Shown: positions 27,196-50,274 of the stretch, piece by piece
Layout of the letters: each line of letters starts with the position of its first letter
How positions within the stretch are numbered: the first letter of the stretch is position 1
From: a virus
Direction: 5' to 3' (one strand)
DNA: 64,000 nucleotides
IMG/VR virus record: IMGVR_UViG_3300021962_000058
Coordinates: 27,150-91,149 of that record
The notes under the pieces: model-generated
What the model was told of the DNA's origin: nothing
The model's input: the letters and a program-made list of their open reading frames with translations, nothing else
Database searches by the model: none
Program-made: the position numbers and the translations under genes

Positions 27196-27376
27196 TCTAG
27201 AAAATTTAAGTAAGAGTTTTGAATACTATAAGGCAGCATCAGAAATTGATGCCATTGATTCTGTTGATACTCTTAGAAATATTGCAAAATCTTATGTGAA
27301 ACTTTATTTTAAACAACAAGAGGTTATCTCATCATTTGGATCTTCAATTGAACCTTTTGGATTCAATGAAGTATAA
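27176..27376 (+). CDS. Small hypothetical protein
   Basis: 66-aa ORF with AAGGA upstream, overlapping the previous gene. Confidence 0.7.
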   Translation: MDPDKINLENLSKSFEYYKAASEIDAIDSVDTLRNIAKSYVKLYFKQQEVISSFGSSIEPFGFNEV

Positions 27377-29528: not shown

Positions 29529-30371
29529 ATGGCAAAACCAGCAAGTAGGCAAGAACTAATTGATTACTGTCTAAGGCGTCTAGGAGCGCCTGTGCTGGAA
29601 ATTAACGTTGATGATGACCAAATAGATGATCTAGTGGACGATGCCCTTCAATACTTCAATGAGCGCCACTTTGATGGTGTAGAGAGAATGTATTTGAAGT
29701 ATCAGATAAGTCAAGCAGATATTGATAGAGGGTCGGCAAAAGGTAAAAATGGTGTTGGAATTGTTACAACAACAGGAACATCCAATGTAATTGGATATGG
29801 TACAACATCATTTAACTTCTATGAAACATCAAACTATATTCAAGTTCCAGATTCAGTCATAGGTATTGAAAAGATATTTAAGTTTGATACTAGTTCCATT
29901 TCTGGTGGAATGTTTAGTATTAAGTATCAACTATTTTTAAATGATCTATATTATTTCAACTCAGTTGAACTTTTACAATATGCTATGGTTAAAAGTTATC
30001 TTGAAGATATTGACTTCTTACTAACAACTGATAAGCAAGTTAGATTTAACAAAAGACAGAATAGATTATATCTGGACCTTGATTGGGGAGCACAGTCTGC
30101 TGGTAATTTTTTAGTTTTAGATTGTTACAGAATTTTAGATCCAACTACTCATACCAAAGTTTATAATGATAGTTTCTTAAAAAGATATCTTACAGCACTA
30201 ATTAAGAGACAGTGGGGTCAAAACTTAATTAAATTTAGAGGAGTTAAACTTCCTGGTGGTATTGAATTTAATGGCAGAGAAATTTATGAAGACGCAGAAA
30301 GAGAACTAGATGAAATAACTAAGAGAATGTCAATGGATTATGAACTTCCACCATACGACTTTATTGGGTAA
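29529..30371 (+). CDS. gp13: Neck protein gp13
   Basis: LIDYCLRRLGAPVLEINVDDDQ and KRQWGQNLIKF..V.LPGG motifs. Confidence 0.93.
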   Translation: MAKPASRQELIDYCLRRLGAPVLEINVDDDQIDDLVDDALQYFNERHFDGVERMYLKYQISQADIDRGSAKGKNGVGIVTTTGTSNVIGYGTTSFNFYETSNYIQVPDSVIGIEKIFKFDTSSISGGMFSIKYQLFLNDLYYFNSVELLQYAMVKSYLEDIDFLLTTDKQVRFNKRQNRLYLDLDWGAQSAGNFLVLDCYRILDPTTHTKVYNDSFLKRYLTALIKRQWGQNLIKFRGVKLPGGIEFNGREIYEDAERELDEITKRMSMDYELPPYDFIG

Positions 30372-31798
30372 TGGCACTTAATCCATTTTTCCTACAAGGA
30401 ACATCATCTGAACAGAGATTGATTCAGGACTTAATAAATGAGCATCTTAGGATGTATGGTGTTGAAGTCATTTATATACCAAGAAAATTTGTAAATAGAA
30501 AAACTATCATAGAAGAAGTTCAATCTTCAAGATTTGATGATAATTTTGCGATTGAAGCATATGTAAATACTTACGATGGTTATTCTGGTGCGGGAGATAT
30601 TTTAACAAAATTTGGAATGAGTCTTAGAGATGAATTATTGATTACAATATCAAAAGAAAGATTTGAAGATTTTATCGCTCCATTTATGGGAGCATTAGAT
30701 GATGGAAGTGGTGAAGGTGAAATTATATTATCTACTCGCCCAAGAGAGGGGGACTTAATTTACTTTCCACTTGGAGAAAGAATTTTTGAAGTTAAGTTTG
30801 TTGAACATGAAAATCCTTTTTATCAACTAGGTAAAAATTATGTTTATGAATTGAAGTGTGAACTATTTGAATATGAGGATGAAATTATTGATACTTCTAT
30901 TGAAGAAGTAGATACACAAGTTGAAAATGAAGGATATATTACTACACTAAAACTGATTGGTGTTGGTAGAACTGCAACAGCATCTGCCACAATTGGTAGT
31001 GGATATGTTAGGGAAATTTTCCTTAATAATGATGGATATGGATATACTTCCACACCTGTAGTTGCTATAAGTAGTTCTCCCACTGGACAACCAGGAGATA
31101 ATGCAACAGCGGTTGCACTAATGTCAGTTAGAAATGGAATTAGATCTGTTGATAGAATTTATTTGACTAATGCAGGTGCTGGATATAGCACTCCACCAAC
31201 TATAAGAATTACTGGTGGTGGTGGAGCAGGTGCTGCTGCTACTTGTTCAATCGAAACTTCATATAATGGTGTAGTTAGATTTATTGTTAATGATAATGGT
31301 GTTGGATATGGTACTGCCCCCGTCGTTACAGTTTCAGCACCAGGACAAACTGGAATAGGTAGAACTGCTGTTGGTATTGCCTCTATTGGACTTGTCGGAT
31401 CTGATAGCGTAGTTCGTTTAGTATACGTTGCAAATCCAGGAATAGGATACACTTCAAATCCAACTGTGGTTATTGCAAATCCAGAAACACTTACGGGTAT
31501 TGGAACTTTCTTATTCAACGAAGTCGTTAGAGGATCTAGATCTCAAATTAGAGCAAGAGTTAAATCGTGGGATAAAGATACCAACATTCTCAAGGTTGCT
31601 AATTTAGGTATTGGAGCAACACAACCATTATTTTTACCAGGCGAAAATATTATTGGAACAGAGTCGGGAGCGATATTTACTGTTCAATATTTTGATCAAA
31701 TGGATACATATGATAAATATAGTCAAAATGATGAGATTGAAGAAGAAGCAGATCTCATTTTAGACTTTACAGAATCAAATCCATTTGGTACTTATTAA
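30371..31798 (+). CDS. gp14: Neck / head-closure protein gp14 with a Gly-rich insertion
   Basis: NPFF...EQRLIQDLINE, KFGMSLRDE, RPREGDLIYFP, PFYQLGK and C-terminal DFTESNPFG. Confidence 0.92.
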   Translation: MALNPFFLQGTSSEQRLIQDLINEHLRMYGVEVIYIPRKFVNRKTIIEEVQSSRFDDNFAIEAYVNTYDGYSGAGDILTKFGMSLRDELLITISKERFEDFIAPFMGALDDGSGEGEIILSTRPREGDLIYFPLGERIFEVKFVEHENPFYQLGKNYVYELKCELFEYEDEIIDTSIEEVDTQVENEGYITTLKLIGVGRTATASATIGSGYVREIFLNNDGYGYTSTPVVAISSSPTGQPGDNATAVALMSVRNGIRSVDRIYLTNAGAGYSTPPTIRITGGGGAGAAATCSIETSYNGVVRFIVNDNGVGYGTAPVVTVSAPGQTGIGRTAVGIASIGLVGSDSVVRLVYVANPGIGYTSNPTVVIANPETLTGIGTFLFNEVVRGSRSQIRARVKSWDKDTNILKVANLGIGATQPLFLPGENIIGTESGAIFTVQYFDQMDTYDKYSQNDEIEEEADLILDFTESNPFGTY

Positions 31799-32598
31799 TG
31801 TTAGGAACGTACTATTATCACGAAATCATAAGAAAGACTATAATAGCTTTCGGAACATTATTTAACCAAATTCACATTCGCCATACCGATCAAAACGGTA
31901 ATAGCATAAGTGATATGAGAGTTCCTATCGCTTATGGTCCGAGACAAAAGTTTCTTGCAAGAATTCAACAGCAACCAGAATTAAATAAAGCGACTCAGAT
32001 TTCACTGCCAAGAATGTCATTTGAGATGACTTCTATACAATATGATCCAAGTAGAAAGTCGAGTGTTGTTCAAACTTTCAAGACCTGTGATGTTAATGGT
32101 AATGTAAAAAAAGTTTTTATGCCAGTTCCCTATAATATTGGGTTTGAACTTAATATTTTAACTAAATTAAATGATGATGCTCTACAAATTATTGAGCAAA
32201 TTTTACCATATTTCCAACCAGGATTTAATGTAACAATAGATATGATTGAATCTATTGGTGAGAAAAAAGATGTTCCGATGGTTTTGGAAAGTATAAATTT
32301 TCAGGATGATTATGAAGGTGATTTTTCAACAAGAAGAGCGTTAATATATACATTATCATTCACAGCAAAAACATATCTGTTTGGTCCAGTTGCTGATAGT
32401 ACTGATGGACTAATTCGTAAGATTCAAGTTGATATGTACACCAGTACAGATACAGAAAATGCTAAAAGAGAACTTAGATATACATTACGTCCAATTCCAA
32501 CTGATGCAGGTCCAGATGATAACTTTGGATTTGACGAAAGATGGGAATTCCTCGATGATTCGAGAGAATATAGTCCAACACGCAAAATAGATGTTTGA
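31798..32598 (+). CDS. gp15: Tail sheath stabiliser / terminator gp15
   Basis: YYYHEIIRK..IAFGTLFN, VPIAYGP, LPRMSFE, QIIEQILPYFQP. Confidence 0.93.
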   Translation: MLGTYYYHEIIRKTIIAFGTLFNQIHIRHTDQNGNSISDMRVPIAYGPRQKFLARIQQQPELNKATQISLPRMSFEMTSIQYDPSRKSSVVQTFKTCDVNGNVKKVFMPVPYNIGFELNILTKLNDDALQIIEQILPYFQPGFNVTIDMIESIGEKKDVPMVLESINFQDDYEGDFSTRRALIYTLSFTAKTYLFGPVADSTDGLIRKIQVDMYTSTDTENAKRELRYTLRPIPTDAGPDDNFGFDERWEFLDDSREYSPTRKIDV

Positions 32599-32604
32599 TA
32601 GATT

Positions 32605-33027
32605 ATGTCAGAAAATTATGATAGTATCGATAACGCTTTAAACATTAAGAGTGAAATCGTAAACGTAGAGAAAGAAACTCCTATCGTTAAAGTAGAATCT
32701 ACTAGCGATGGAGATATTAGAAAAGATTATGAGTATACTAGGGCAAACTTATATTCTCTTATAGAAAAGGGTCAAGAAGCAATTAATGGAATAATGGAGC
32801 TTGCTGCTGAAAGTGATCAACCAAGAGCATATGAAGTTGCGGGTCAATTAATTAAAAGTGTTGGAGATGTAACTGATAAACTTATTGATTTACAAAAGAA
32901 ACTCAAAGATGTTGAAGAAGATGTGGTAAAAACAACAAATAATGTTACTAACAATGCGGTGTTTGTTGGTTCAACATCAGAACTGTCTAAACTTCTGAAA
33001 CAAGGTTTTCTAAATAATAAAGAGTAA
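32605..33027 (+). CDS. gp16: Terminase small subunit gp16
   Basis: DYEYTRANL...ESDQPRAYEVAGQL...FVGSTSEL. Confidence 0.92.
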   Translation: MSENYDSIDNALNIKSEIVNVEKETPIVKVESTSDGDIRKDYEYTRANLYSLIEKGQEAINGIMELAAESDQPRAYEVAGQLIKSVGDVTDKLIDLQKKLKDVEEDVVKTTNNVTNNAVFVGSTSELSKLLKQGFLNNKE

Positions 33028-33040
33028 ACTTTTCAGATGT

Positions 33041-35062
33041 ATGAGTTGGTCTAATGATTACAAAAAATCAATAGACTGTAAAAATCCAAAGGGTTTTTCT
33101 CAAAAGGCACATTGTGCTGCCAGAAAGAAAAGACAAAGAGGCGAAGAGACAAAATCAATGTCACCATTTAACGAAGACGTGCAAAGTGTAAAGAAGATTA
33201 AGTTCTCCAAATTTACACACAAAACTCCCCATCTAAAAGGCGGTCAACACGTTTTAGATCCAAATGTGGATTTAAAGCAATTAGTTCATCACGCAACTGT
33301 TCAGTATCTTGATCGTGATGCTGATGGTGATATTGACATCTATGATGCTTCTAGTAAAAAAACACCTGATGAAAATGTTATGAGTGCTCCTGGTGAAGCA
33401 CAAAAGAGATCTTTGAAACTAATTGCAAAGCAAAAAGGTGAAATGCTTCATACAAAAAGAGGCTCAGCATTTGAAGGTGTTGAAATGAGATATTGCAAAC
33501 TTTGCAGAAAAATGGAAGCAAGAACGGATTGTTCATATGGACCTACAATGTGGGATAAGTATTCGGTAGCAAAAGTTCATCCAGCCAACGAAGCGAAAGA
33601 TCACGAGTATTCAATGGCTCGTTCGGAACTCTCTACCATTGTTAATGGTGCCAAGAGACTTCAGAAAAAAATGAAGAAAGGTGAAGGTGAGATTGAGGCT
33701 TGGGTTCAGTCAAAAATCACCAAAGCAGCAGATTATATTGATTCGGCAGCAGATTATGTTGATAGTGGTGAAATGAATAAGGAAGAAGTTGAAATATTAG
33801 AAGGTAAAAGAGACGGTAAATCTGCAAAGGATCCTGGTTATTCATTAAGAGATTGGTTTAAAGGTGGTGGATGGGTTCAGGCAGGTGGTAAGTATGATGG
33901 TAAACCTTGTGCCAAACAACCAGGTCAAAAAACAAAGCCATTCTGCCGCGATGCCGATGATCGTGCTGCAATGAGCAAATCTGAAAGAACAAGAAGAGCA
34001 GCAAAAAAGCGTAAAGAAGATCCAAATCCAAATAGAAGTGGAAAAGCAAAATTTGTAAGTGCTTCTTATGAACCACAAGGTCAGCAACTTGATGAGTTAT
34101 GGGGAAAGGTTGCTCTTGGTGCAGGTGCAATGTTTATTCCATATCTTTTGAAAAAATTTGCAAAACCTGCTGTAGATAAAGTAATTAATGAACCAGCAAC
34201 TGGATCTGGAACTTTAGTTGATAAATTAAAGCAGAAAAGAGATACTATCAATCAGATGAATTCTTATGAATTACAAGGTGAAGTGATTGATGAAGCAGGA
34301 AAAAAATGCTGGAAAGGATATAAGAAGGCAGGAACTCAAACACTTTTTGGAAAAACTTATAATCGCTGCGTAAAGGAAGAAGTTTGTCCCGTTTGTGGAT
34401 ATGATCCCTGCGAATGTTTAGAAGGATCTCTCCAAGAGAAAAAAGATGCTTGCTATCATAAAGTAAAGTCACGTTATAAAGTTTGGCCAAGTGCATATGC
34501 ATCTGGTGCATTAGTTAAGTGTCGTAAAGTTGGAGCAGATAGTTGGGGAACTAAATCAGAAAGCACTGATGCACTTGGATATGATTGGGATACACCAATT
34601 AGAGAAAGACCAGATAGATATTGCCCCAAATGTGAAAAACTAGAACTAAGAAATGAATGTAAATATGGAACTAGATACTGGGATATGTTTTCACTTCCAG
34701 CAGAATTGATCGGATCAAAAAAAGAATATAATATAACTATGCCTTATGCAGGCAATGTGAAAGAAAAATATCAGTTTTCAAATTGGAGAGAAGAACTTGC
34801 AGAGGACTGGCAAAAAGTTAATCGTCAAGACAAAACTGATGGATTAAGTCCCGCTGCAGTAAAAGCATATCGTCGTGAGAATCCAGGTTCAAAACTTCAA
34901 ACTGCAGTAACTGAAAAGAAACCAAAAGGTAAGAGAGCAAAGCGTCGTGCATCATTCTGCCGCAGAATGAAGGGTATGAAGTCTAAACTGACTTCTGCAA
35001 AAACTGCAAGAGATCCAGATTCAAGAATTAACAAAGCACTACGTCGTTGGAGGTGTAACTAA
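33041..35062 (+). CDS. Modular hypothetical protein (673 aa), putative internal head polyprotein
   Basis: String of short basic Cys-containing modules separated by acidic linkers ending in Glu; CTAAATA late-type promoter at 33010-33016. Confidence 0.75.
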   Translation: MSWSNDYKKSIDCKNPKGFSQKAHCAARKKRQRGEETKSMSPFNEDVQSVKKIKFSKFTHKTPHLKGGQHVLDPNVDLKQLVHHATVQYLDRDADGDIDIYDASSKKTPDENVMSAPGEAQKRSLKLIAKQKGEMLHTKRGSAFEGVEMRYCKLCRKMEARTDCSYGPTMWDKYSVAKVHPANEAKDHEYSMARSELSTIVNGAKRLQKKMKKGEGEIEAWVQSKITKAADYIDSAADYVDSGEMNKEEVEILEGKRDGKSAKDPGYSLRDWFKGGGWVQAGGKYDGKPCAKQPGQKTKPFCRDADDRAAMSKSERTRRAAKKRKEDPNPNRSGKAKFVSASYEPQGQQLDELWGKVALGAGAMFIPYLLKKFAKPAVDKVINEPATGSGTLVDKLKQKRDTINQMNSYELQGEVIDEAGKKCWKGYKKAGTQTLFGKTYNRCVKEEVCPVCGYDPCECLEGSLQEKKDACYHKVKSRYKVWPSAYASGALVKCRKVGADSWGTKSESTDALGYDWDTPIRERPDRYCPKCEKLELRNECKYGTRYWDMFSLPAELIGSKKEYNITMPYAGNVKEKYQFSNWREELAEDWQKVNRQDKTDGLSPAAVKAYRRENPGSKLQTAVTEKKPKGKRAKRRASFCRRMKGMKSKLTSAKTARDPDSRINKALRRWRCN

Positions 35063-35379
35063 TGAAATCTTTTAGAGAGTTTCTTTCCGAAAGTGTAAAT
35101 ATAGCAGGTGACTTTAATGGAAACCTTTATATTAATGGTTCTGAACAACAATCAGAACCTGTTGGAGAATCTTTCTTTGCTGACGTAGTTTGGGAAGGAA
35201 AGATGTATCGTTTAGAAGTTGAAGGTAAGATGATGCATAAAAATGAACTTGCTGAACAAATTCAAGAAGAATATCCTGGTGCAATTGTTCATAACATTTA
35301 TCCTTCACAATCACAAAGTTCTTTAAGAATCAAAAATTCACAAAGATATCAACCAGAAAGACTGACTTGGACTGATTAA
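35062..35379 (+). CDS. Hypothetical protein with T4 capsid-targeting-like leader
   Basis: Starts MKSFREFLSE; coupled to the upstream stop. Confidence 0.7.
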   Translation: MKSFREFLSESVNIAGDFNGNLYINGSEQQSEPVGESFFADVVWEGKMYRLEVEGKMMHKNELAEQIQEEYPGAIVHNIYPSQSQSSLRIKNSQRYQPERLTWTD

Positions 35380-35381
35380 TT

Positions 35382-36716
35382 ATGGCACAATGGAATAAGA
35401 ATACACAGGACTTTCTGAATCAAGAAAGAACTTTATTTGAAGTTAATGGTGTTGCTACCAGAGACGGAAAAATTGTAGATAAATTTAATCGGTTTCCAGT
35501 AGATGTTCTTCCAGCAAATGCAGATGCTTTTGGAAGAACAAGAGTATCAAACCCATTAACACTTTTCGATTCATCTCATAGGTACAGAGATAATAACCTG
35601 TGGGATAGTTTAATAGTTGGAACTGGTTCTACTGTTGGATTTGCAACTACAGCAGGTTTGGTTGATATGACTGTTGGTGTTGGAAGCACCGCATCAGTTA
35701 TCAGAGAAACTACAAAAGTATTTTCATATCAACCAGGAAAATCTCTGTTGACTATGAATACTTTTATATTGAATCCACCAAAAGAAAATCTAAGGCAAAG
35801 AGTTGGGTATTTTGGTGCCGATAATGGAATATATTTTGAGGTTGATGGTACTACAGCATATTTTGTAGAAAGAAGTTTGTCATTAGGAACAGAAACAAGA
35901 GTTGCTCAATCAAATTGGAATATTGATAAGTTAGATGGAACAGGTGTTTCTGGAATTACCTTAGACCTATCCAAAGCACAAATTCTTTGGATGGATATTG
36001 AATGGTTAGGACTTGGAAATGTAAGACTTGGATTTATAATTAATGGAAATTTTATTCACGCACATACTTTCCAACACGCAAATATAATTCAATCAACATA
36101 TATTACAACAGCATCACTTCCTTTGAGGTATGAAATTAGCAACACTGGAATTACAACGAGTACAAGCACACTAAAACAAGTTTGTTCTACAGTAATTTCC
36201 GAAGGCGGATACGAACTTCGTGGATTGCAGCAAGCAGTTTCAACACCTATTACAGCACCAGTAGATTTGCCAACTCCTGCTGGGACATATTATCCAGTCA
36301 TTTCCATTAGACTTAAAGCACCAATTAATGGACAACCAGATAGATTAGATGCAATTGTTATTATGACGGCACTATCAATTATGGGAACTGGAAATGGTCC
36401 CCAATATAATTGGCAGGTGAGAGCAAGTGCAACTACATCGGGAGGAACTTGGGTGAGTGCTGGAACAGACTCTGCGATTGAATATAAAATAGATGGTGGA
36501 ACCGTTAGTGGTGGAAGAGTCCTAGCATCTGGATTCCTTACGTCGGCAAACCAATCATCACAATCAGTAGATATTCTTAAAGAAGCACTCTTCAAGTTTC
36601 AGTTAGAAAGAAATGGATTAACTAAAACTCCATATGAACTAACGTTAGTTGCGGCATCTGATACTGCGGGTGCTGATATTTTTGCTTCATTAGACTGGGA
36701 AGAAATTAGTAGGTAA
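35382..36716 (+). CDS. Conserved hypothetical protein, probably beta-rich and virion-associated
   Basis: 444 aa; DAFGRTRVSNPLTLFDS, YQPGKS and EWLGLG.VR.G motifs; Gly/Thr-rich. Confidence 0.7.
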   Translation: MAQWNKNTQDFLNQERTLFEVNGVATRDGKIVDKFNRFPVDVLPANADAFGRTRVSNPLTLFDSSHRYRDNNLWDSLIVGTGSTVGFATTAGLVDMTVGVGSTASVIRETTKVFSYQPGKSLLTMNTFILNPPKENLRQRVGYFGADNGIYFEVDGTTAYFVERSLSLGTETRVAQSNWNIDKLDGTGVSGITLDLSKAQILWMDIEWLGLGNVRLGFIINGNFIHAHTFQHANIIQSTYITTASLPLRYEISNTGITTSTSTLKQVCSTVISEGGYELRGLQQAVSTPITAPVDLPTPAGTYYPVISIRLKAPINGQPDRLDAIVIMTALSIMGTGNGPQYNWQVRASATTSGGTWVSAGTDSAIEYKIDGGTVSGGRVLASGFLTSANQSSQSVDILKEALFKFQLERNGLTKTPYELTLVAASDTAGADIFASLDWEEISR

Positions 36717-36722
36717 TTAATT

Positions 36723-36746
36723 ATGAGTGAAGTTTATCTTGTATAA
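36723..36746 (+). pseudogene. Orphaned 5' remnant of gp17 (MSEVYL)
   Basis: ATG AGT GAA GTT TAT CTT G matches the gp17 start MSSDVYLG (GAT GTT TAT TTG G) about 530 bp downstream. Confidence 0.6.
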
Positions 36747-36749
36747 ATA
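36742..36749 (+). promoter_or_regulatory. T4-type late promoter TATAAATA
   Basis: Exact consensus at the left edge of the HNH insertion. Confidence 0.75.
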
Positions 36750-36771
36750 TTTTTTAGATTGGGATTGAAAT

Positions 36772-37257
36772 GTGTCTGCTATTATTAAAGTTCCAAGAGA
36801 AAGATTAAGTCCTAAAACAGTAAGAAATATTGCTCGCAAAAATTGGGGATTGACTTGGGAACAAATGAAAGGTATGGATGTTCATCATTTCCCACCAAGA
36901 TGTGAAGGTGGAAAAGATATACCAGAGCATTTATATGTTTGTAGTAGAGAACTACATAAGTATGGGTGGCATAATGATGCTTGGTTTATGGAAAATTTAA
37001 ATAAGGCAACTCAAAAAAATATTGGTAGGAAACATAGTAAAGAAACTTGTAGAAAGAAAAGTGAGGCACTGAAAGGTCGCTCTTTTGGTCATAAGTATGA
37101 GGGTGGAGAAAAACACCCAAACAGTAAAAGAGTTTCCATCAATGGGAGAGTTTATGTTTCTCAACAAGAAGCAGCAGATGATGTTGGAATAACAATACAA
37201 GGTCTTTCATATAGAATGAAACACTGGGGTCCAGACAGGGGGTATGAGTATGTCTAG
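36772..37257 (+). mobile_element. Free-standing HNH homing endonuclease with NUMOD3-like and HTH DNA-binding modules
   Basis: DVHHFPPRCEGGKD.PEHL...LHKYGWH (HNH-like), GRKHSKETCRKKSEALKG (NUMOD3-like), GEKHPNSK, INGRVYVSQQEAADDVGI (HTH); overlaps the gp17 start. Confidence 0.8.
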
Positions 37258-38938
37258 TGATGTTTATTTGGGTAATCCTCTGCTCAAAAAAGCCAACACG
37301 CCTATTGAGTTTACGGAAGAACAGATTATTGAGTTCTTAAAATGTAAAGAAGATCCTGTATATTTTGCTAGAAATTATATTAAGATTGTGTCTCTTGATC
37401 ACGGTCTAGTTCCTTTTGAGATGTACCCATTTCAGGAGAGATTAATTGAAAATTTCCACAAAAATAGATTTAATATTTGTAAGATGCCACGTCAAACTGG
37501 TAAGTCTACTACTTGTGTATCATATCTTCTGCACTACGCTGTTTTTAACGATAATGTTAACATCGCCATCTTAGCAAACAAAGCATCAACTGCTAGGGAT
37601 CTTCTAGGAAGATTACAACTTGCTTATGAAAACTTGCCGAAGTGGATGCAACAAGGTATTATATCGTGGAACAAAGGTAGTTTAGAATTAGAAAATGGCT
37701 CCAAGATTTCATCTAACTCTACTTCTTCATCTGCTGTCAGAGGCGGATCCTATAATGTCATCTTTCTTGACGAGTTCGCTTTCATCCCGAATCACATTGC
37801 TGATGACTTCTTTGCCTCTGTTTATCCTACTATTTCTTCTGGACAGAGCACGAAGGTAATCATCGTTTCAACGCCACGCGGTATGAATCATTTCTACCGT
37901 ATGTGGCACGATGCTGAACGCAACAAGAATGAATATGTGCCAACTGATGTTCATTGGTCAGAAGTTCCTGGTAGAGATGAGGCGTGGAAAGAGCAGACTA
38001 TTGCCAACACTTCTGAACAGCAGTTCAAAGTTGAGTTTGAATGTGAATTCTTAGGATCTGTCAATACTCTTATCAATCCATCAAAATTAAGAAATCTTGT
38101 CTATGAAGATCCTATAAAGAGAAATGCTGGATTAGACATTTATCAAAATCCAATAGAGGAAAATAATTATTTGATTACAGTTGACGTTGCTCGTGGATTA
38201 GGTAACGATTATTCTGCTTTTATTGTTTTTGATATTACACAGTTTCCATATAAGGTTGTTGCAAAGTATAGAAATAATGAAATTAAACCAATGCTATTTC
38301 CTAGCATTATTCACGAAGTTGCCAAAGGATATAATGATGCTTGGTTATTAATTGAGGTAAATGATATTGGCGATCAAGTTGCAAGTATTCTTCACTTTGA
38401 TCTCGAGTATGATAATGTTTTGATGTGTGCGATGCGTGGTCGTGCAGGTCAAATTGTTGGATCTGGATTTAGTGGGAAGAAATCGCAGTTGGGAGTAAGA
38501 ATGACTTCTGCTGTGAAAAAGTTGGGATGCTCTAACTTAAAAACTCTATTAGAAGATGATAAGTTACTGACTGTTGATTATGACATTATATCAGAACTTA
38601 CAACATTTGCACAGAGGCATAATTCATTTGAAGCAGAAGAAGGATGTAATGATGACTTGGCAATGTGTCTTGTTATATTCTCTTGGTTAGTTGCTCAAGA
38701 TTACTTCAAAGAAATGACGGACAATGATGTTCGTAAGAGAATCTATGAAGAGCAAAAAAACCAGATTGAGCAGGATATGGCACCATTTGGATTTATTTTG
38801 GATGGTCTGGATGAAGAAATTTTTGTTGATGAGAAGACGGGAGATAGGTGGATTAATGCAGCATCGAAGGATAATAATTTGGAAGTTTGGAATTTAGATG
38901 AATATGGAGACAGATCTTATATGTGGGATTATCGATAA
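37244..38938 (+). CDS. gp17: Terminase large subunit gp17
   Basis: YLGNPLLKK, Walker A PRQTGKST, Walker B IFLDEFAF, nuclease residues VDVARG and NDDLAM; start may be ATG 37250. Confidence 0.96.
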   Translation: MSMSSDVYLGNPLLKKANTPIEFTEEQIIEFLKCKEDPVYFARNYIKIVSLDHGLVPFEMYPFQERLIENFHKNRFNICKMPRQTGKSTTCVSYLLHYAVFNDNVNIAILANKASTARDLLGRLQLAYENLPKWMQQGIISWNKGSLELENGSKISSNSTSSSAVRGGSYNVIFLDEFAFIPNHIADDFFASVYPTISSGQSTKVIIVSTPRGMNHFYRMWHDAERNKNEYVPTDVHWSEVPGRDEAWKEQTIANTSEQQFKVEFECEFLGSVNTLINPSKLRNLVYEDPIKRNAGLDIYQNPIEENNYLITVDVARGLGNDYSAFIVFDITQFPYKVVAKYRNNEIKPMLFPSIIHEVAKGYNDAWLLIEVNDIGDQVASILHFDLEYDNVLMCAMRGRAGQIVGSGFSGKKSQLGVRMTSAVKKLGCSNLKTLLEDDKLLTVDYDIISELTTFAQRHNSFEAEEGCNDDLAMCLVIFSWLVAQDYFKEMTDNDVRKRIYEEQKNQIEQDMAPFGFILDGLDEEIFVDEKTGDRWINAASKDNNLEVWNLDEYGDRSYMWDYR

Positions 38939-44258: not shown

Positions 44259-44909
44259 ATGAAACTCATCACAGAAGAAATTCAAAAGGTAGAATTTATT
44301 ACCGAAGGCAAAGGTTTAAAGCAAAAAATGTATATTGAAGGTGTTTTCCTTCAAGGTGATATTTGCAACCGTAATGGAAGAATGTATCCAATGGAAACAC
44401 TCTCCCGTGAGGTAAAAAGATATACCGAATCTTTTATTAATAAAGGTCGTGCTCTTGGTGAACTTGGACACCCTGATGGACCAACAGTCAACCTTGATCG
44501 TGTTTCTCATAAAATTGTTTCTCTCACTGCAGAAGGAACAAACTTTAGAGGTAAGGCACAACTTCTCGAAACTCCAATGGGTAAGATTGCAAAATCTCTT
44601 ATTGGTGAAGGAGTTTGTCTTGGCGTTTCTTCTCGTGGTGTTGGTTCATTAAAGATGACCAATGAGGGTCATAAAATTGTTGGCGAAGATTTTATGCTAG
44701 CAACTGCTGCTGATATTGTTGCCGATCCTTCTGCACCTGATGCTTTTGTTCAGGGAATTATGGAAGGTAAAGAGTGGGTTTGGGAAGGGGGAATTCTTCG
44801 TGAAAGACTTGCAGAACAAACTCAAAAGAGAATTAATACTCTGGTTGATCAAAGAAGACTTGAAGAGCATAAGTTGAATTTATTCAACGAATTTCTTTCA
44901 AATCTTTAA
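44259..44909 (+). CDS. gp21: Prohead core protease gp21
   Basis: NRNGRMYP, ALGELGHP (catalytic His), GVSSRGVGS (catalytic Ser), DIVADPSAPDA. Confidence 0.96.
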   Translation: MKLITEEIQKVEFITEGKGLKQKMYIEGVFLQGDICNRNGRMYPMETLSREVKRYTESFINKGRALGELGHPDGPTVNLDRVSHKIVSLTAEGTNFRGKAQLLETPMGKIAKSLIGEGVCLGVSSRGVGSLKMTNEGHKIVGEDFMLATAADIVADPSAPDAFVQGIMEGKEWVWEGGILRERLAEQTQKRINTLVDQRRLEEHKLNLFNEFLSNL

Positions 44910-44949: not shown

Positions 44950-46035
44950 ATGTCCGTTGGTAGAAATTTACAAGAAATGGAAAACGTAGTAACCAAAGGG
45001 GCTGCACCTGCCGATCCAATGCCACAAACTGGCATCGAGTACGAAGATTTAGGTGGTCCTACTCCCGAAAATTATCGTCCAGATGACGATTCTTCTAAAC
45101 TCAAAGACCCATCTGCAACTCTTGCTCAGGTAAGAGACATTGTTAATGCGAAAGCAATGAAAGCAGAAGAGACTGAGATTGAAGATGAAGTCATTGAAGA
45201 GGAAACCGAAGAGGAAGAGACCGACCTCGAAGGTGAGGAAGGTGGTGAAGATTCAGAAGAAGATACCGCCGAAGAAGAAGTAGAAGAAGTAGAAGAAGAG
45301 TTTAACATCGATGAAGATGTAAACGCTCTTCTCGAAGGTGAGGAGCTTTCTGAGGAATTCCAAGAGAAAGCACGCACCATCTTCGAAGCAGCGATTAAGT
45401 CGAAAGTTGCCGAAATCAAAGAGTCTCTCCAAGAGTCATATGCAGTTGCTCTTGTAGAAGAACTCAATGCTATCAAATCGGAACTTACCGAAAGAGTCGA
45501 TGCATATCTTGAGTATGTCGCTGATGAGTGGTTCCAAGAGAATGCACTCGCAGTTGAGCACGGTCTTAAGACCGAAATGACCGAATCATTCCTCGTTGGA
45601 ATGAAGAGTCTTTTTGAAGATCATTATGTAACAATCCCTGAAGATAGATATGATGTAATCGAGAGCATGGTAGATAAACTTGATGAAATGGAAGAAAAAC
45701 TCAACGAGCAAATTCAAAGAAATGTTGCTCTTAATAGAAGATTAGCTGAGTCGGTTGCTGATGTAATCTTTGCAGATGTCGCTGAGGGTCTTGCACTATC
45801 TCAGAAGGACAAACTCGCTTCTCTTGCCGAAAATGTTGAGTTTGAAAGTGAAGCAGACTATCGTGAGAAGCTAGTAACTCTGAGGGAATCATATTTCCCA
45901 GCAAACACTGGTACTCAAAGAAGCACAACTGAGAATCTCTCAGAAGAAGTCTCATCTGATGAAACGATCACTGAATCTGTTTCGCCAGTAATGGCTGCTT
46001 ATTTAGAGACTCTTGCTAGAGCTTCTAAAAAGTGA
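44950..46035 (+). CDS. gp22: Prohead core scaffold protein gp22
   Basis: Acidic coiled coil with LSEEF.EKA.TIFEAA and VDAYLEYVADEW..EN.LAVE; between gp21 and gp23. Confidence 0.93.
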   Translation: MSVGRNLQEMENVVTKGAAPADPMPQTGIEYEDLGGPTPENYRPDDDSSKLKDPSATLAQVRDIVNAKAMKAEETEIEDEVIEEETEEEETDLEGEEGGEDSEEDTAEEEVEEVEEEFNIDEDVNALLEGEELSEEFQEKARTIFEAAIKSKVAEIKESLQESYAVALVEELNAIKSELTERVDAYLEYVADEWFQENALAVEHGLKTEMTESFLVGMKSLFEDHYVTIPEDRYDVIESMVDKLDEMEEKLNEQIQRNVALNRRLAESVADVIFADVAEGLALSQKDKLASLAENVEFESEADYREKLVTLRESYFPANTGTQRSTTENLSEEVSSDETITESVSPVMAAYLETLARASKK

Positions 46036-46084: not shown

Positions 46085-47485
46085 ATGCAAATGTTCAATG
46101 CTGAGCAATTGCAGGAGAAGTGGGCACCTATCCTCGACTATGAGGGTCTTGATTCAATCAAAGATTCGCATCGTAGAGCGGTAACCGCTATCCTGCTAGA
46201 AAACCAAGAGAGAGAACTCCGTGAGGAGAGAGCATTCCTCTCTGAAGGTCCTACTGTTAGCACCCTTTCTGGAACCGGTAATCCTGGTTTCTCTGCCGGC
46301 GCTTCTGCACCTGTTGCTGGTTTCGACCCCGTTCTGATCTCCCTGATCAGACGTTCAATGCCTAACCTGGTCGCTTATGACCTCGCTGGCGTTCAACCAA
46401 TGAACGGTCCTACTGGACTCATCTTCGCAATGCGCTCGAAGTACAACACCCAGAGCGGCACCGAAGCACTGTTCAACGAAGCAGATACTGCATTCTCTGG
46501 TCAGTCAACCAACCTCAACAACACTCAGGGTTGGACTAACGGAACCGTTGGTCTTGGTACTACAACCCAAAGAGGAACCAATCCTGGTCTTCTCGATCCT
46601 ACTTTCCCTGCAACTGGCGATGCTAGTACCTACAACGTAGGTCAGGGTATGCGTACCGATGTTGCTGAGAATCTTGGCGACGGTACTGAGGGTCACTTCA
46701 ATGAGATGGCATTCTCGATCGAGAAGGTCACTGTTACTGCGAAGTCCAGAGCACTGAAAGCTGAGTACTCACTCGAACTCGCACAAGACCTGAAGGCAAT
46801 TCACGGTCTGAATGCAGAAGCTGAGCTTGCAAACATCCTCAGCACCGAGATCCTCGCAGAAATCAACCGCGAAGTTATCCGTACCATCTATAACGTTGCT
46901 GAGTCTGGTGCTCAGGCAAACGTTGCTACCGCTGGTACTTTCGACCTCGATGTTGACTCCAACGGTCGTTGGTCAGTTGAGAAGTTCAAGGGTCTTATCT
47001 TCCAGATCGAGCGCGACGCTAACGCAATCGCACAAAGAACTCGTCGTGGAAAGGGCAACATGATCCTCTGCTCCGCAGACGTTGCTTCCGCCCTGACAAT
47101 GGCTGGTGTACTTGATTACACCCCCGCCCTCAACGCTAACCTCAACGTTGATGACACTGGTAACACCTTCGCTGGTGTTCTGCAAGGTAAGTATCGTGTT
47201 TATATCGATCCTTATTCGGCAAACGTTTCTGCTAACCAGTACTACGTTGTTGGTTATAAGGGTTCTTCCCCTTATGATGCAGGTCTGTTCTATTGCCCAT
47301 ACGTACCCCTCCAGATGGTACGTGCGGTTGGTGAGGACACCTTCCAGCCCAAGATTGGCTTCAAGACCCGCTATGGTATCGTTGCTAACCCATTCTCACA
47401 GGGTACAACCGCTATCACTGGCGACGGTCTGGTACGTAACGCAAACCGTTACTACAGAAGAGTCAAAGTAACCAATCTAATGTAA
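46085..47485 (+). CDS. gp23: Major capsid protein gp23
   Basis: KWAPILD, GVQPMNGPTGLIFAMR, KSRALKAEYSLELAQDLKAIHGL, FQPKIGFKTRYG. Confidence 0.98.
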   Translation: MQMFNAEQLQEKWAPILDYEGLDSIKDSHRRAVTAILLENQERELREERAFLSEGPTVSTLSGTGNPGFSAGASAPVAGFDPVLISLIRRSMPNLVAYDLAGVQPMNGPTGLIFAMRSKYNTQSGTEALFNEADTAFSGQSTNLNNTQGWTNGTVGLGTTTQRGTNPGLLDPTFPATGDASTYNVGQGMRTDVAENLGDGTEGHFNEMAFSIEKVTVTAKSRALKAEYSLELAQDLKAIHGLNAEAELANILSTEILAEINREVIRTIYNVAESGAQANVATAGTFDLDVDSNGRWSVEKFKGLIFQIERDANAIAQRTRRGKGNMILCSADVASALTMAGVLDYTPALNANLNVDDTGNTFAGVLQGKYRVYIDPYSANVSANQYYVVGYKGSSPYDAGLFYCPYVPLQMVRAVGEDTFQPKIGFKTRYGIVANPFSQGTTAITGDGLVRNANRYYRRVKVTNLM

Positions 47486-47566: not shown

Positions 47567-48070
47567 ATGGCATTTATATATAAAGCAACAAACAAAGTTA
47601 ATGGTAAAATTTATATCGGGAGAACATCCTACGACAAATTATACAAAAGAATTAATTCTCACTTTTGGTATTCTAAAAATAAAGATTGCAACATACCATT
47701 TGCAAATGCCCTAAAAAAATATGGAAGAAATCAATTTGAATGGGAAATTTTAGAGGAATGTAAAAATGAAGATATGGGGCAAAAAGAAATTTATTGGATA
47801 GATAAGTTAAAACCAGATTACAATGTTACTCTTGGTGGTGATGGGGGACATTATGGAAGAATATGCCCAGAAAATGTGAAGTTAGCATCTAAAATTGCAA
47901 ACAGTAAACCTGTCATAGATACGAGAACTGGAATCGTGTATGAAAGTGCAACAGAAGCATCAAAAAATCTTGGTATTTCCAGATCCAGTATTTCTAGAAG
48001 TTGCGCAAAAGATGAATCTAAAAGTCGCCCAAATAGAAAACCTTGGTTTAGATATATAGAGAATAAATAA
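47567..48070 (+). mobile_element. Free-standing GIY-YIG homing endonuclease (Seg-like) with C-terminal NUMOD1-like HTH
   Basis: FIYKATNKVNGKIYIGRT, conserved R, E.YWI and YN..LGG; C-terminal GIVYESATEASKNLGISRSSI. Confidence 0.88.
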
Positions 48071-48250: not shown

Positions 48251-48886
48251 ATGAAGACTTTTAAAGAATTTTGCGGCGATGCTGATATTTTAGAATTTTG
48301 GAATCCATTTGCATCTAAACCGCAAGTAAAACCAAAAGCAAACACAAAAGTTCTTGCTTATAAGAACTATAATCCTGGTGTTTTGGATAAGTCTACTGGA
48401 AAATTCACCCAACGTCCTCATAGTGAAGCAGAACAACAGAGGTATGGTTGGAAACCAGTAACTGTAAGCACTTACAGTAAGGCAGATACTCCCGGTTCAT
48501 TAACTGCAAGTGGTCATAAATTTGATGACACTCAAAGACTAGTTGCTGTTCCATATGCATCTAAAACAAGCTCTAAACCTTCTATTCCATTTGGAACAAA
48601 GTTACAAATAACAAAAGCACCAGGAACAAAGGCACCAATTGCAACAACTACTGTTCGTGACACTGGAAACTTTGGACGAGCTGGAGATTATAATAAACAA
48701 ACATATGCAGATGCAGCATTACAAACTACTAGAGATTTTACAGGAAACCCCAATATTACTGCAATAGAAGCTGGTAAACAAAAAGTTTACGTTAGAACTT
48801 TATCAAAACCAAAACCAAAAATTCCTGATTTGGGCGTAAAGGTAAATATGAGTATTCCAAAAATAGTTCCAACTAAGAAAAAATAA
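48251..48886 (+). CDS. RlpA/3D-like (double-psi beta-barrel) domain protein with capsid-targeting-like leader
   Basis: Starts MKTFKEF; contains STY...TASGHKFD...VAVP...IPFGTKLQI...VRDTG...AD, resembling the RlpA/3D pattern. Confidence 0.65.
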   Translation: MKTFKEFCGDADILEFWNPFASKPQVKPKANTKVLAYKNYNPGVLDKSTGKFTQRPHSEAEQQRYGWKPVTVSTYSKADTPGSLTASGHKFDDTQRLVAVPYASKTSSKPSIPFGTKLQITKAPGTKAPIATTTVRDTGNFGRAGDYNKQTYADAALQTTRDFTGNPNITAIEAGKQKVYVRTLSKPKPKIPDLGVKVNMSIPKIVPTKKK

Positions 48887-49866: not shown

Positions 49867-50274
49867 ATGAAGACTTTTAACGAGTTTCAAGAGCAACTGT
49901 CACTATCACAAGCATTTCAAAAAGCAGGAAAGGGACCAGGAGTTGGAGACTGGGAAAGTTCTAGAACTTTAAATAGTTTGAGGGGTGCATCTACAAGCGA
50001 TAGAGCAAAACCAAAGGGGAGCAAGGCAGGAATTCCAACCGTACCTTTAAATCAGGCAACTTATAGGGGAAGAGCAGAAGCAGATAGAAATCCAAAATAT
50101 CAAGAGAATCCGGACTATACTGGACCAACAATTGGGTTTGGAGGTTCTCCTGGAACTAAAGATAAAATGCCGGGAACAACGCCAAGTAATAATCCAAGTT
50201 TATCTACAACAAAATTAAAATCAAAACCACTATCTACATCAAAACCAAAATCAAATTATTCTAACTTTATATGA
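49867..50274 (+). CDS. Hypothetical low-complexity protein with capsid-targeting-like leader
   Basis: Starts MKTFNEFQEQL; own CTAAATA (49847-49853) and AGGA Shine-Dalgarno; inserted between uvsY and uvsW. Confidence 0.7.
   Translation: MKTFNEFQEQLSLSQAFQKAGKGPGVGDWESSRTLNSLRGASTSDRAKPKGSKAGIPTVPLNQATYRGRAEADRNPKYQENPDYTGPTIGFGGSPGTKDKMPGTTPSNNPSLSTTKLKSKPLSTSKPKSNYSNFI

Follow-up and report, generated by a model that had tools for sequence, protein, structure and literature searches.

The window analysed here, a stretch of 64,000 nucleotides that is part of a 91-kb virus record, carries the block of late structural genes of a T4-like cyanomyovirus. Within this block, an open reading frame (ORF) at 33041-35062 on the plus strand (P0001; phrog_727 / T4-GC119 'structural protein') lies directly downstream of gp16/TerS. 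Its translation runs through 673 amino acids without an internal stop, and the product has an isoelectric point (pI) of 9.5 and a mass of 76 kDa. A preceding inspection of the DNA letters, hereafter the sequence-only reading, had placed this ORF between gp16 and gp17 and proposed that it encodes a polyprotein which is cut into small peptides inside the prohead. The placement is correct, with three ORFs (of 105 aa, of 444 aa and of HNH type) separating it from gp17/TerL. We found that the 673-residue protein consists of a row of about eleven autonomous mini-modules, most of them basic, which are arranged as follows.

33041-33175, plus strand: module A (residues 1-45), basic, two Cys, C-terminal end SPFNE; predicted local distance difference test score (pLDDT) 73-84
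33176-33475, plus strand: module B (residues 46-145), mostly of low confidence, with an EF-hand-like loop; C-terminal end SAFE
33476-33592, plus strand: module C (residues 146-184), first RYCxxC..CxYG..WD..HPANE copy, Cys3-His, zinc-ribbon-like; pLDDT 88-89
33593-33802, plus strand: module D (residues 185-254), acidic, two helices, DHEYSM..., C-terminal end EVEILE
33803-34063, plus strand: module E (residues 255-341), GKRDGKSA..YSLRDWFKGGGWVQAGGKYDGKPC..C.., with a strongly positive net charge
34064-34096, plus strand: portable linker copy 1, SYEPQGQQLDE (residues 342-352)
34097-34261, plus strand: module F (residues 353-407), a hydrophobic helix and a helical tail
34262-34294, plus strand: portable linker copy 2, SYELQGEVIDE (residues 408-418)
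34295-34438, plus strand: modules G and H, a 48-residue cassette
within 34295-34438, plus strand: module G (residues 419-447), AGKKCWKGY..C, a small three-stranded sheet
within 34295-34438, plus strand: module H (residues 448-466), CPVCGYDPCEC
34439-34561, plus strand: module I (residues 467-507), KKDACYHKVKSRYKVWPSAYASGALVKCRKVG, DUF5872-like
34562-34765, plus strand: acidic spacer (residues 508-522, end PIRE) and module J (residues 523-575), the second RYC copy
34766-34804, plus strand: leader KYQFSNWREELAE (residues 576-588), resembling the T4 capsid-targeting sequence (CTS); E588 is invariant
34805-35059, plus strand: module K (residues 589-673), DUF6321, net charge +20, pI 11.4

All eleven Glu-ended motifs listed by the sequence-only reading were found again (PFNE45, SAFE145, PANE184, EILE254, QLDE352, VIDE418, VKEE447, SLQE466, TKSE507, NVKE575 and ELAE588), and so were the other features it had described. 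The RYC..C..C.YG..WD module is indeed present twice (residues 150-176 and 526-552), with a Smith-Waterman score of 88 against 23.1 +/- 4.3 for shuffled sequences (z=15, 0/500 shuffles as high). The two near-copy linkers of the form SYExQGxxxDE were located at the places claimed for them and score 37 against 17.7 +/- 4.2 (z=4.6, 1/500 shuffles as high). The loop DRDADGDIDIYD (residues 91-102, window positions 33311-33346) matches the canonical 12-residue EF-hand calcium loop pattern, and the hydrophobic helix of module F reads LWGKVALGAGAMFIPYLL. The loop is kept in homologues of module B, and the region that flanks it is predicted to be disordered. Judged from their sequences, the Cys3-His RYC module and CPVCGYDPCEC may bind zinc; by composition, the EF-hand-like loop may bind calcium, the helix of module F may contact a membrane, and DUF6321 together with other basic pieces may bind DNA. 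A calculated cut at twelve junctions divides the protein into thirteen predicted pieces of 1.7-11.2 kDa, eight of which have a pI of 8.2-9.9, while the DUF6321 piece, of 9.8 kDa and starting with DWQKVN, has a pI of 11.4; the acidic pieces are module D, module H and both spacers.

Using AlphaFold2 with 79 aligned homologues, we obtained a model of the 673-residue protein with a predicted template modelling score (pTM) of 0.23 and a mean pLDDT of 60. Confident beads cover residues ~1-40, 147-178, 261-328, 415-448, 463-504, 517-559 and 588-673, and the pLDDT falls below 50 in the stretches 41-117, 133-146, 179-192, 229-256, 329-351, 405-414, 449-462, 505-516 and 560-587. Every proposed junction Glu is located in or beside a low-confidence stretch. 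The model gives a picture of beads on a string, in which the predicted junctions lie in linkers. Such flexible linkers fit either a protein that is cut between its modules or an uncleaved virion protein whose modules stay linked and whose leaders, for example, dock to the scaffold core or the capsid interior, providing targeting without processing. Given the leaders and the stand-alone modules described below, we consider the uncleaved form, although the main rival, unlikely. A Foldseek search of the model against PDB returned no match at E <= 0.001. The sheet of module G (residues 419-447, 34295-34381) gave non-significant Foldseek matches to alpha-defensins (E >1, template modelling score to the target 0.7-0.87, ~30 residues); this likeness is one of shape only and is not used here as evidence, and module G has just two Cys.

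The order of the modules differs widely between phages. With profiles built for the eleven segments A-K we annotated 120 homologues and found 64 distinct gapped architectures. Module A at the N-terminus and module K at the C-terminus are nearly fixed and the inner modules are permuted: the order ABCDEFGHIJK of the 673-residue protein is met by ABE_IJD_GK, AJDE_FI_GK, A_EHIJD_GK, BECDIGH_K or BCDGEI_G_K in homologues. Module A is the usual N-terminus in long family members, and some relatives start with a CTS-like leader or another Cys-rich module instead. Relatives that are 80-94% identical show insertions and deletions of whole cassettes, the ends of which lie exactly between two Glu. The G+H cassette (residues 419-466) is missing, in register, in P0004 and P0007, leaving ..IDE/KKDACY (here and below, a slash marks the predicted cut); a cassette of ~70 residues with module J is missing in P0002, P0003 and P0007, and P0003 has 42 extra residues immediately after PANE184. 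Phages thus exchange the modules as whole cassettes. The sequence-only reading had named colinear homologues without Glu-ended linkers as an outcome that would speak against a polyprotein, and the opposite was found, since modules are shuffled and Glu-ended leaders are kept.

The T4 protease gp21 cuts head proteins after Glu in the motif [ILV]-x-E. In the 673-residue protein alone, [LIV]xE occurs 10 times where ~5.8 are expected by composition, which is only mildly above chance and not significant by itself. The motif signal becomes strong only once homologues are compared. The expectation that the listed joints follow the T4 rule held in part: P3 is A or F at PFNE, SAFE and PANE, and TKSE and VKEE are off the rule. 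We then counted leaders in 33 clusters at 70% identity, anchored on module-start motifs and independent of the Glu-based segmentation. Module starts are preceded by hydrophobic-x-Glu whichever module is upstream, as the following counts show.

Leader of F: P1 Glu 8/8, P3 L 8/8
Leader of G: P1 Glu 20/23, P3 I/L/V 19/23
Leader of K: P1 Glu 29/29, P3 L/I/V/F 27/29
Leader of E: P1 Glu 15/15, P3 I/V/L/M 15/15
Leader of D: P1 Glu 25/33, P3 A, M or F
Leader of I: P1 Glu 14/31, otherwise Gly-Ser-Gly

Module F is preceded by L/I-D-E in 16/16 distinct leaders, and module E, in relatives, by [IVLM]-x-E or by a CTS-like N-terminus. The portable linker [SH][YF]EP[EQ]G..[LIV].E was found before F, G, H, I or K, depending on the protein. 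When all sequences of DWQ-type DUF6321 were gathered, they gave 109 distinct 10-residue leaders, with Glu at P1 in 109/109, Asp in none and L/F/I/V/M at P3 in 105/109. The overall E:D ratio of the family is 1.13:1, so that a Glu-specific protease fits this choice better than a charge-based docking of an uncleaved protein would. With module borders taken from the Glu-based segmentation of the sequence-only reading, [LIVM]xE was observed 225 times in linkers and module edges, where shuffling whole proteins gives 81.8 +/- 8.6 and shuffling region by region gives 144.7 +/- 10.4 (z=7.7); module cores are not enriched (87 observed, 97.7 +/- 9.1 in shuffles). As judged from the homologues and the AlphaFold2 model, a conserved cleavage-type motif is present at the module junctions, in linkers predicted to be accessible.

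The Glu-ended linkers might also be mere recombination joints, where short conserved DNA promotes the exchange of cassettes and the encoded peptide has no task of its own. Stretches of 10+7+7 bases are identical in the two linker copies, and the cassette indels are located at linkers, as one would expect of such joints. However, the 109 decapeptides before DUF6321 differ from each other and yet retain Glu at P1 and a hydrophobic P3. Because leaders as diverse as these keep both positions, selection appears to act on the leader peptide and not on a patch of DNA homology, and we regard joints of DNA alone as highly improbable. Within DUF6321, the motif VTE625 (V623-T624-E625, 34907-34915) was considered as an extra cut site specific to myoviruses, and such a general role was rejected. 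Only the closest subfamily has the motif without exception, and most other forms, multi-module or stand-alone, have VTT or VTG; a lineage-specific extra cut site is possible.

The genes around the ORF, and those that bear on its processing, are listed below.

29529-30371: gp13-like adaptor
30371-31798: gp14
31798-32598: gp15
32605-33027: gp16/TerS
35062-35379, plus strand: ORF of 105 aa, starting with a near-perfect T4-type CTS
35382-36716: virion protein of 444 aa
36772-37257: HNH-type ORF
37244-38938: gp17/TerL
3' of gp17: gp18, gp19 and gp20
44259-44909, plus strand: gp21 prohead protease (Peptidase_S77), the candidate processing enzyme
44950-46035: gp22
46085-47485: gp23
46235-46246, plus strand: FLSE, residues 51-54 of gp23, the likely maturation site of this major capsid protein by its position relative to the conserved gp23 core

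The gp21 gene, identified by Peptidase_S77 with E=5.5e-37, is located ~9 kb 3' of the 673-residue ORF. The FLSE site that the sequence-only reading had pointed out in gp23 was recovered as RAFLSE54/GPTV ahead of the conserved core. A late promoter belonging to the 673-residue ORF itself was considered and rejected, as no TATAAATA precedes the ORF and the nearest one upstream is at 27372. Transcription of the ORF together with gp13-gp16, the structural genes before it, is therefore probable.

Several further observations were made on the neighbouring genes. The HNH-type ORF adjoins gp17 and overlaps its start, and a TATAAATA is found at 36742 (region 36717-36750). Directly 3' of gp23, at 47567-48070, there is a GIY-YIG endonuclease with an I-TevI-like DNA-binding domain, probably a free-standing homing endonuclease. 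The neck protein gp14 has 475 aa and a C-terminal extension, which matches repeats of large virion structural, baseplate and fibre proteins (phrog_701, 708, 5342).

Mullaney and Black reportedly described in 1996 that the T4 internal proteins carry an N-terminal CTS and are processed by gp21. The N-terminal decapeptide of IPIII, MKTYQEFIAE, directs cargo into the T4 prohead; its residues 4 and 7 are important for targeting, and processing by gp21 involves residues 8 and 10 (PMC9026906). The internal proteins of T-even phages are diverse, and the CTS tag is the only part that they share (PMC3012670). The same kind of tag is found in the cyanophage family. In nine members, a module follows directly on an N-terminal CTS-like tag of the MKTFKEFI..E type, as in MKTFKEFIQIVE/KLDGKSA, MKTFKSFLLE/ARKSGD, MLTFQEFITE/ATPAWQRK and MKTFIQFIEE/DKSPAWQR. 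Moreover, seven members have an internal CTS-like decapeptide immediately before a module, such as KLKSFDEFMSE/ASPAWQRK, KIKTFNQFVTE/ASAAWQRK and GTKMKTFKSFME/K, the last of which retains its Met, as expected from a gene fusion. In the 673-residue protein, the internal leader FSNWREELAE588/DWQ has a W-x-E-x-L-x-E spacing that compares with Y-Q-E-F-I-A-E in T4.

Because the neighbouring 105-aa ORF starts with MKSFREFLSE, the phage itself uses a capsid-targeting tag. Together with this ORF (35062-35379), two otherwise unrelated ORFs of the window have a CTS-like start, at 48251-48886 (MKTFKEFCGDADILE, MKTFKEF..) and at 49867-50274 (MKTFNEFQEQ), and by their N-terminal sequences all three are candidates for further head cargo of this phage. 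The IMG/VR contig 3300034198_008553 (L065) encodes a 483-aa protein with an N-terminal MKTFKQIRE and an internal MKTFKSFME (residues ~217-235), whose Met is kept, which suggests that two CTS-tagged genes were recently fused. In T4, the determinants of targeting and of processing are separable (PMC9026906), which would suit leaders that only dock an uncleaved protein. Yet a CTS with Asp at position 10 still targets in T4 and blocks the cut (PMC9026906), which speaks against docking alone.

The modules also exist as separate genes in other phages. DUF6321 without a leader is encoded by an 84-aa gene adjoining the capsid gene in the Prochlorococcus podovirus P-SCSP1k, by an 84-aa gene in pelagiphage HTVC035P and by a 105-aa gene in HTVC023P. 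The roseophage CRP-901 (OQ401623.1) has an unannotated 54-aa ORF (L007:2483-2647) that corresponds to module I alone (MPAKKPKRDACY...) and, overlapping it, an unannotated 91-aa ORF (L007:2604-2879) that resembles module E. Both are located just after gp68 and a DUF2213 fragment. In 80 IMG/VR loci, stand-alone DUF6321 mostly starts with MAK[ST]P-AWQRK, which is the predicted cut point of the multi-module forms. Stand-alone modules start exactly after the Glu position, and this again argues against a protein that remains uncleaved.

The occurrence of the protease points in a similar direction. Peptidase_S77 was found in S-SKS1, which has the multi-module form, and the same search found none in P-SCSP1k, HTVC035P, HTVC023P and CRP-901. 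Among 29 IMG/VR contigs, six have S77, and 6/6 of these carry Glu-leader forms, five of them multi-module; it was found in 0/6 of the contigs that are >=50% complete and have leaderless stand-alone forms. At the level of these sequences, the co-occurrence of S77 with Glu-leader forms is supportive, not decisive.

The 673-residue protein matches the phrog_727 profile with E=3.8e-85, and its residues 596-670 match DUF6321 (PF19846) with 51.5 bits at a Pfam gathering cut-off of 28.5. Using tblastn, we found relatives in 469 phage records, mostly of Synechococcus and Prochlorococcus myoviruses, some of which are annotated as 'structural protein' or 'virion protein'. The nearest isolate match is the freshwater Synechococcus phage S-SRM01, with 56% protein identity over 68% of the query (tblastn). 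In S-P4, the orthologue likewise follows TerS and is annotated as structural protein T4-GC0119. Two word-indexed homology searches, in each of which 8,000 candidates were scored, gave at least 8,000 and at least 7,417 hits at E <= 0.001, and hence the family is very large. Scans of ten pieces of the protein with Pfam and PHROG returned only DUF6321, a sub-threshold DUF5872 and unnamed phrogs. There was no match in NCBIfam or in a sequence search of PDB, and module E gave only unnamed viral clusters in the ESM Atlas.

Studies of purified cyanophages place the family in the virion. T4-GC119 is present in 15/16 cyanomyovirus genomes, with gene lengths of 276 to 2985 nucleotides, and absent in S-PM2; Sullivan et al. 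(2010) list it as a structural protein with 13 peptide counts in S-SM1 virions (PMC3037559, including Table S8). Seven peptides of ORF160 of S-CREM2, a three-module relative, were detected in virions (PMC10665884). These detections would fit a full-length protein too, as the uncleaved form requires. The Syn9 orthologue is annotated and was not detected in Syn9 virions (PMC3037559), which weighs against packaged cargo. It would suit an accessory of the scaffold or core that is cut by gp21 and then mostly expelled, like most of T4 gp22, with modules that are not functional cargo. Such an accessory would follow the same motif logic, and the acidic leaders and the acidic module D resemble a scaffold in composition. 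The peptides in purified S-SM1 and S-CREM2 virions speak against it, as do the modules themselves, which are conserved, Cys-paired and very basic small folds and which occur as independent genes in podoviruses without such a protease. We therefore rate a scaffold role as improbable. It may be speculated that the gel-based Syn9 study missed small pieces that run off ordinary gels.

Taken together, we propose, with a probability of roughly 60%, that the 673-residue ORF encodes a late-expressed precursor of head cargo, which gp21 cuts and which corresponds, in polyprotein form, to the internal proteins of T4. This proposal draws on the sequence comparisons and on the analogy with T4. The polyprotein idea of the sequence-only reading gains from the shuffled modules, the Glu leaders, the T4-like tags in relatives, the homologues in virions and the S77 protease gp21, and loses at those joints that depart from [ILV]-x-E. 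The precursor would be incorporated into the prohead core, where several or most leaders would be cut by gp21 behind their Glu, yielding mostly basic fragments (pI 8-11.4) of ~2-11 kDa alongside small acidic linker peptides. The basic fragments, DUF6321 above all, would stay with the packaged DNA and probably exit with it at infection, and the variable module set may serve host-specific tasks, for example DNA protection or counter-defence.

Besides the Syn9 case, a number of points weigh against this proposal. The N-terminus of the 673-residue protein (MSWSNDYKK) is not CTS-like, and the specificity of the cyanophage gp21 is one that we take over from T4. At several joints P3 is A or F, or the motif is missing, and GSG precedes module I in about half of the leaders. 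The homologues are mutually related, so that the counts are not independent events, and the co-occurrence of S77 comes from few contigs, many of them incomplete. Borders taken from a Glu-based segmentation bias the shuffle test towards its result; the motif-anchored leader analysis is unaffected. The detections in S-SM1 and S-CREM2 are of the shotgun tryptic type and silent on processing (PMC3037559, PMC10665884), and the papers and supplements on these virions report no cleavage product, N-terminus or semi-specific peptide.

By sequence, the 673-residue protein is not a member of the T4 internal, phiKZ-like or polyvalent groups, and a search of the full-text literature found no description of this cyanophage system. 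It shares with T4 IPI, IPII, IPIII and Alt a short aromatic-x-x-aromatic-[IL]-x-E leader before the cargo (PMC9026906, PMC3012670), an encoded T4-type S77 protease, late expression from a structural gene block, and cargo that is small, often basic and variable between related phages behind a conserved leader. In contrast to T4, the cyanophage cargo units are fused in one frame with the leaders as internal linkers, and the N-terminus is a basic module instead of a CTS. Searches of Pfam, NCBIfam and PDB sequences revealed no homology of the modules to IPI, IPII or IPIII, and cleavage and ejection, which are predictions for the cyanophage, are a further difference.

Head proteins that are cut more than once are found in other phages. 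In phiKZ, 201phi2-1 and SPN3US, inner-body or head proteins are cut several times after Glu by a gp21-like protease (PMC5694885, PMC10052503). As predicted for the cyanophage, multiple Glu cuts are made in one head protein by a trans-acting prohead protease at short sites whose P3 is small or hydrophobic, and the products stay in the head and are then ejected, which we propose likewise for the cyanophage pieces. However, the phiKZ-like proteins are trimmed of propeptides down to one large mature part, whereas the cyanophage pieces would all be small autonomous modules in shuffled order. The polyvalent proteins described by Iyer et al. in 2017 (PMC5512222) similarly combine several unrelated domains per polypeptide in highly variable architectures; their packaging and their delivery along with the DNA are predicted, and proteolytic release is proposed. 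They differ in having enzymatic effectors and usually an embedded peptidase, neither of which was detectable in Pfam and NCBIfam scans of the whole 673-residue protein and of its ten pieces; the cyanophage protein would depend on a separate prohead protease.

In adenovirus, the core precursors pVII and pre-mu are cut by the viral protease inside the capsid. There, too, very basic, DNA-associated peptides arise from precursors through a capsid-resident protease, but adenovirus belongs to an unrelated lineage with an unrelated protease, each precursor is a single unit and no modules are shuffled.

T4-like cyanophages are among the most abundant viruses of the ocean, and the phrog_727 / T4-GC119 family has no assigned role beyond 'structural protein'. 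If the proposal is true, the cyanophage counterpart of the T4 internal proteins would be identified, and DUF6321 and several unnamed mini-domains would receive a function. More tentatively, and with considerable doubt, the internal CTS/cleavage leaders may act as universal couplers by which any small gene can be spliced into one cargo precursor. T4-like cyanophages would then eject mini-proteins from a combinatorial kit that is rapidly reshuffled (DNA-coating, metal-binding, membrane-active, counter-defence), and phages without the protease would carry the same kit as separate genes. Under the main proposal, the hypervariable region between gp16 and gp17 would be explained as a site of cargo exchange. 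That proposal also predicts a group of small proteins that reach the host together with the DNA, as candidates for early host takeover or counter-defence, and would offer a natural multi-cargo packaging design for the engineering of T4-type capsids.

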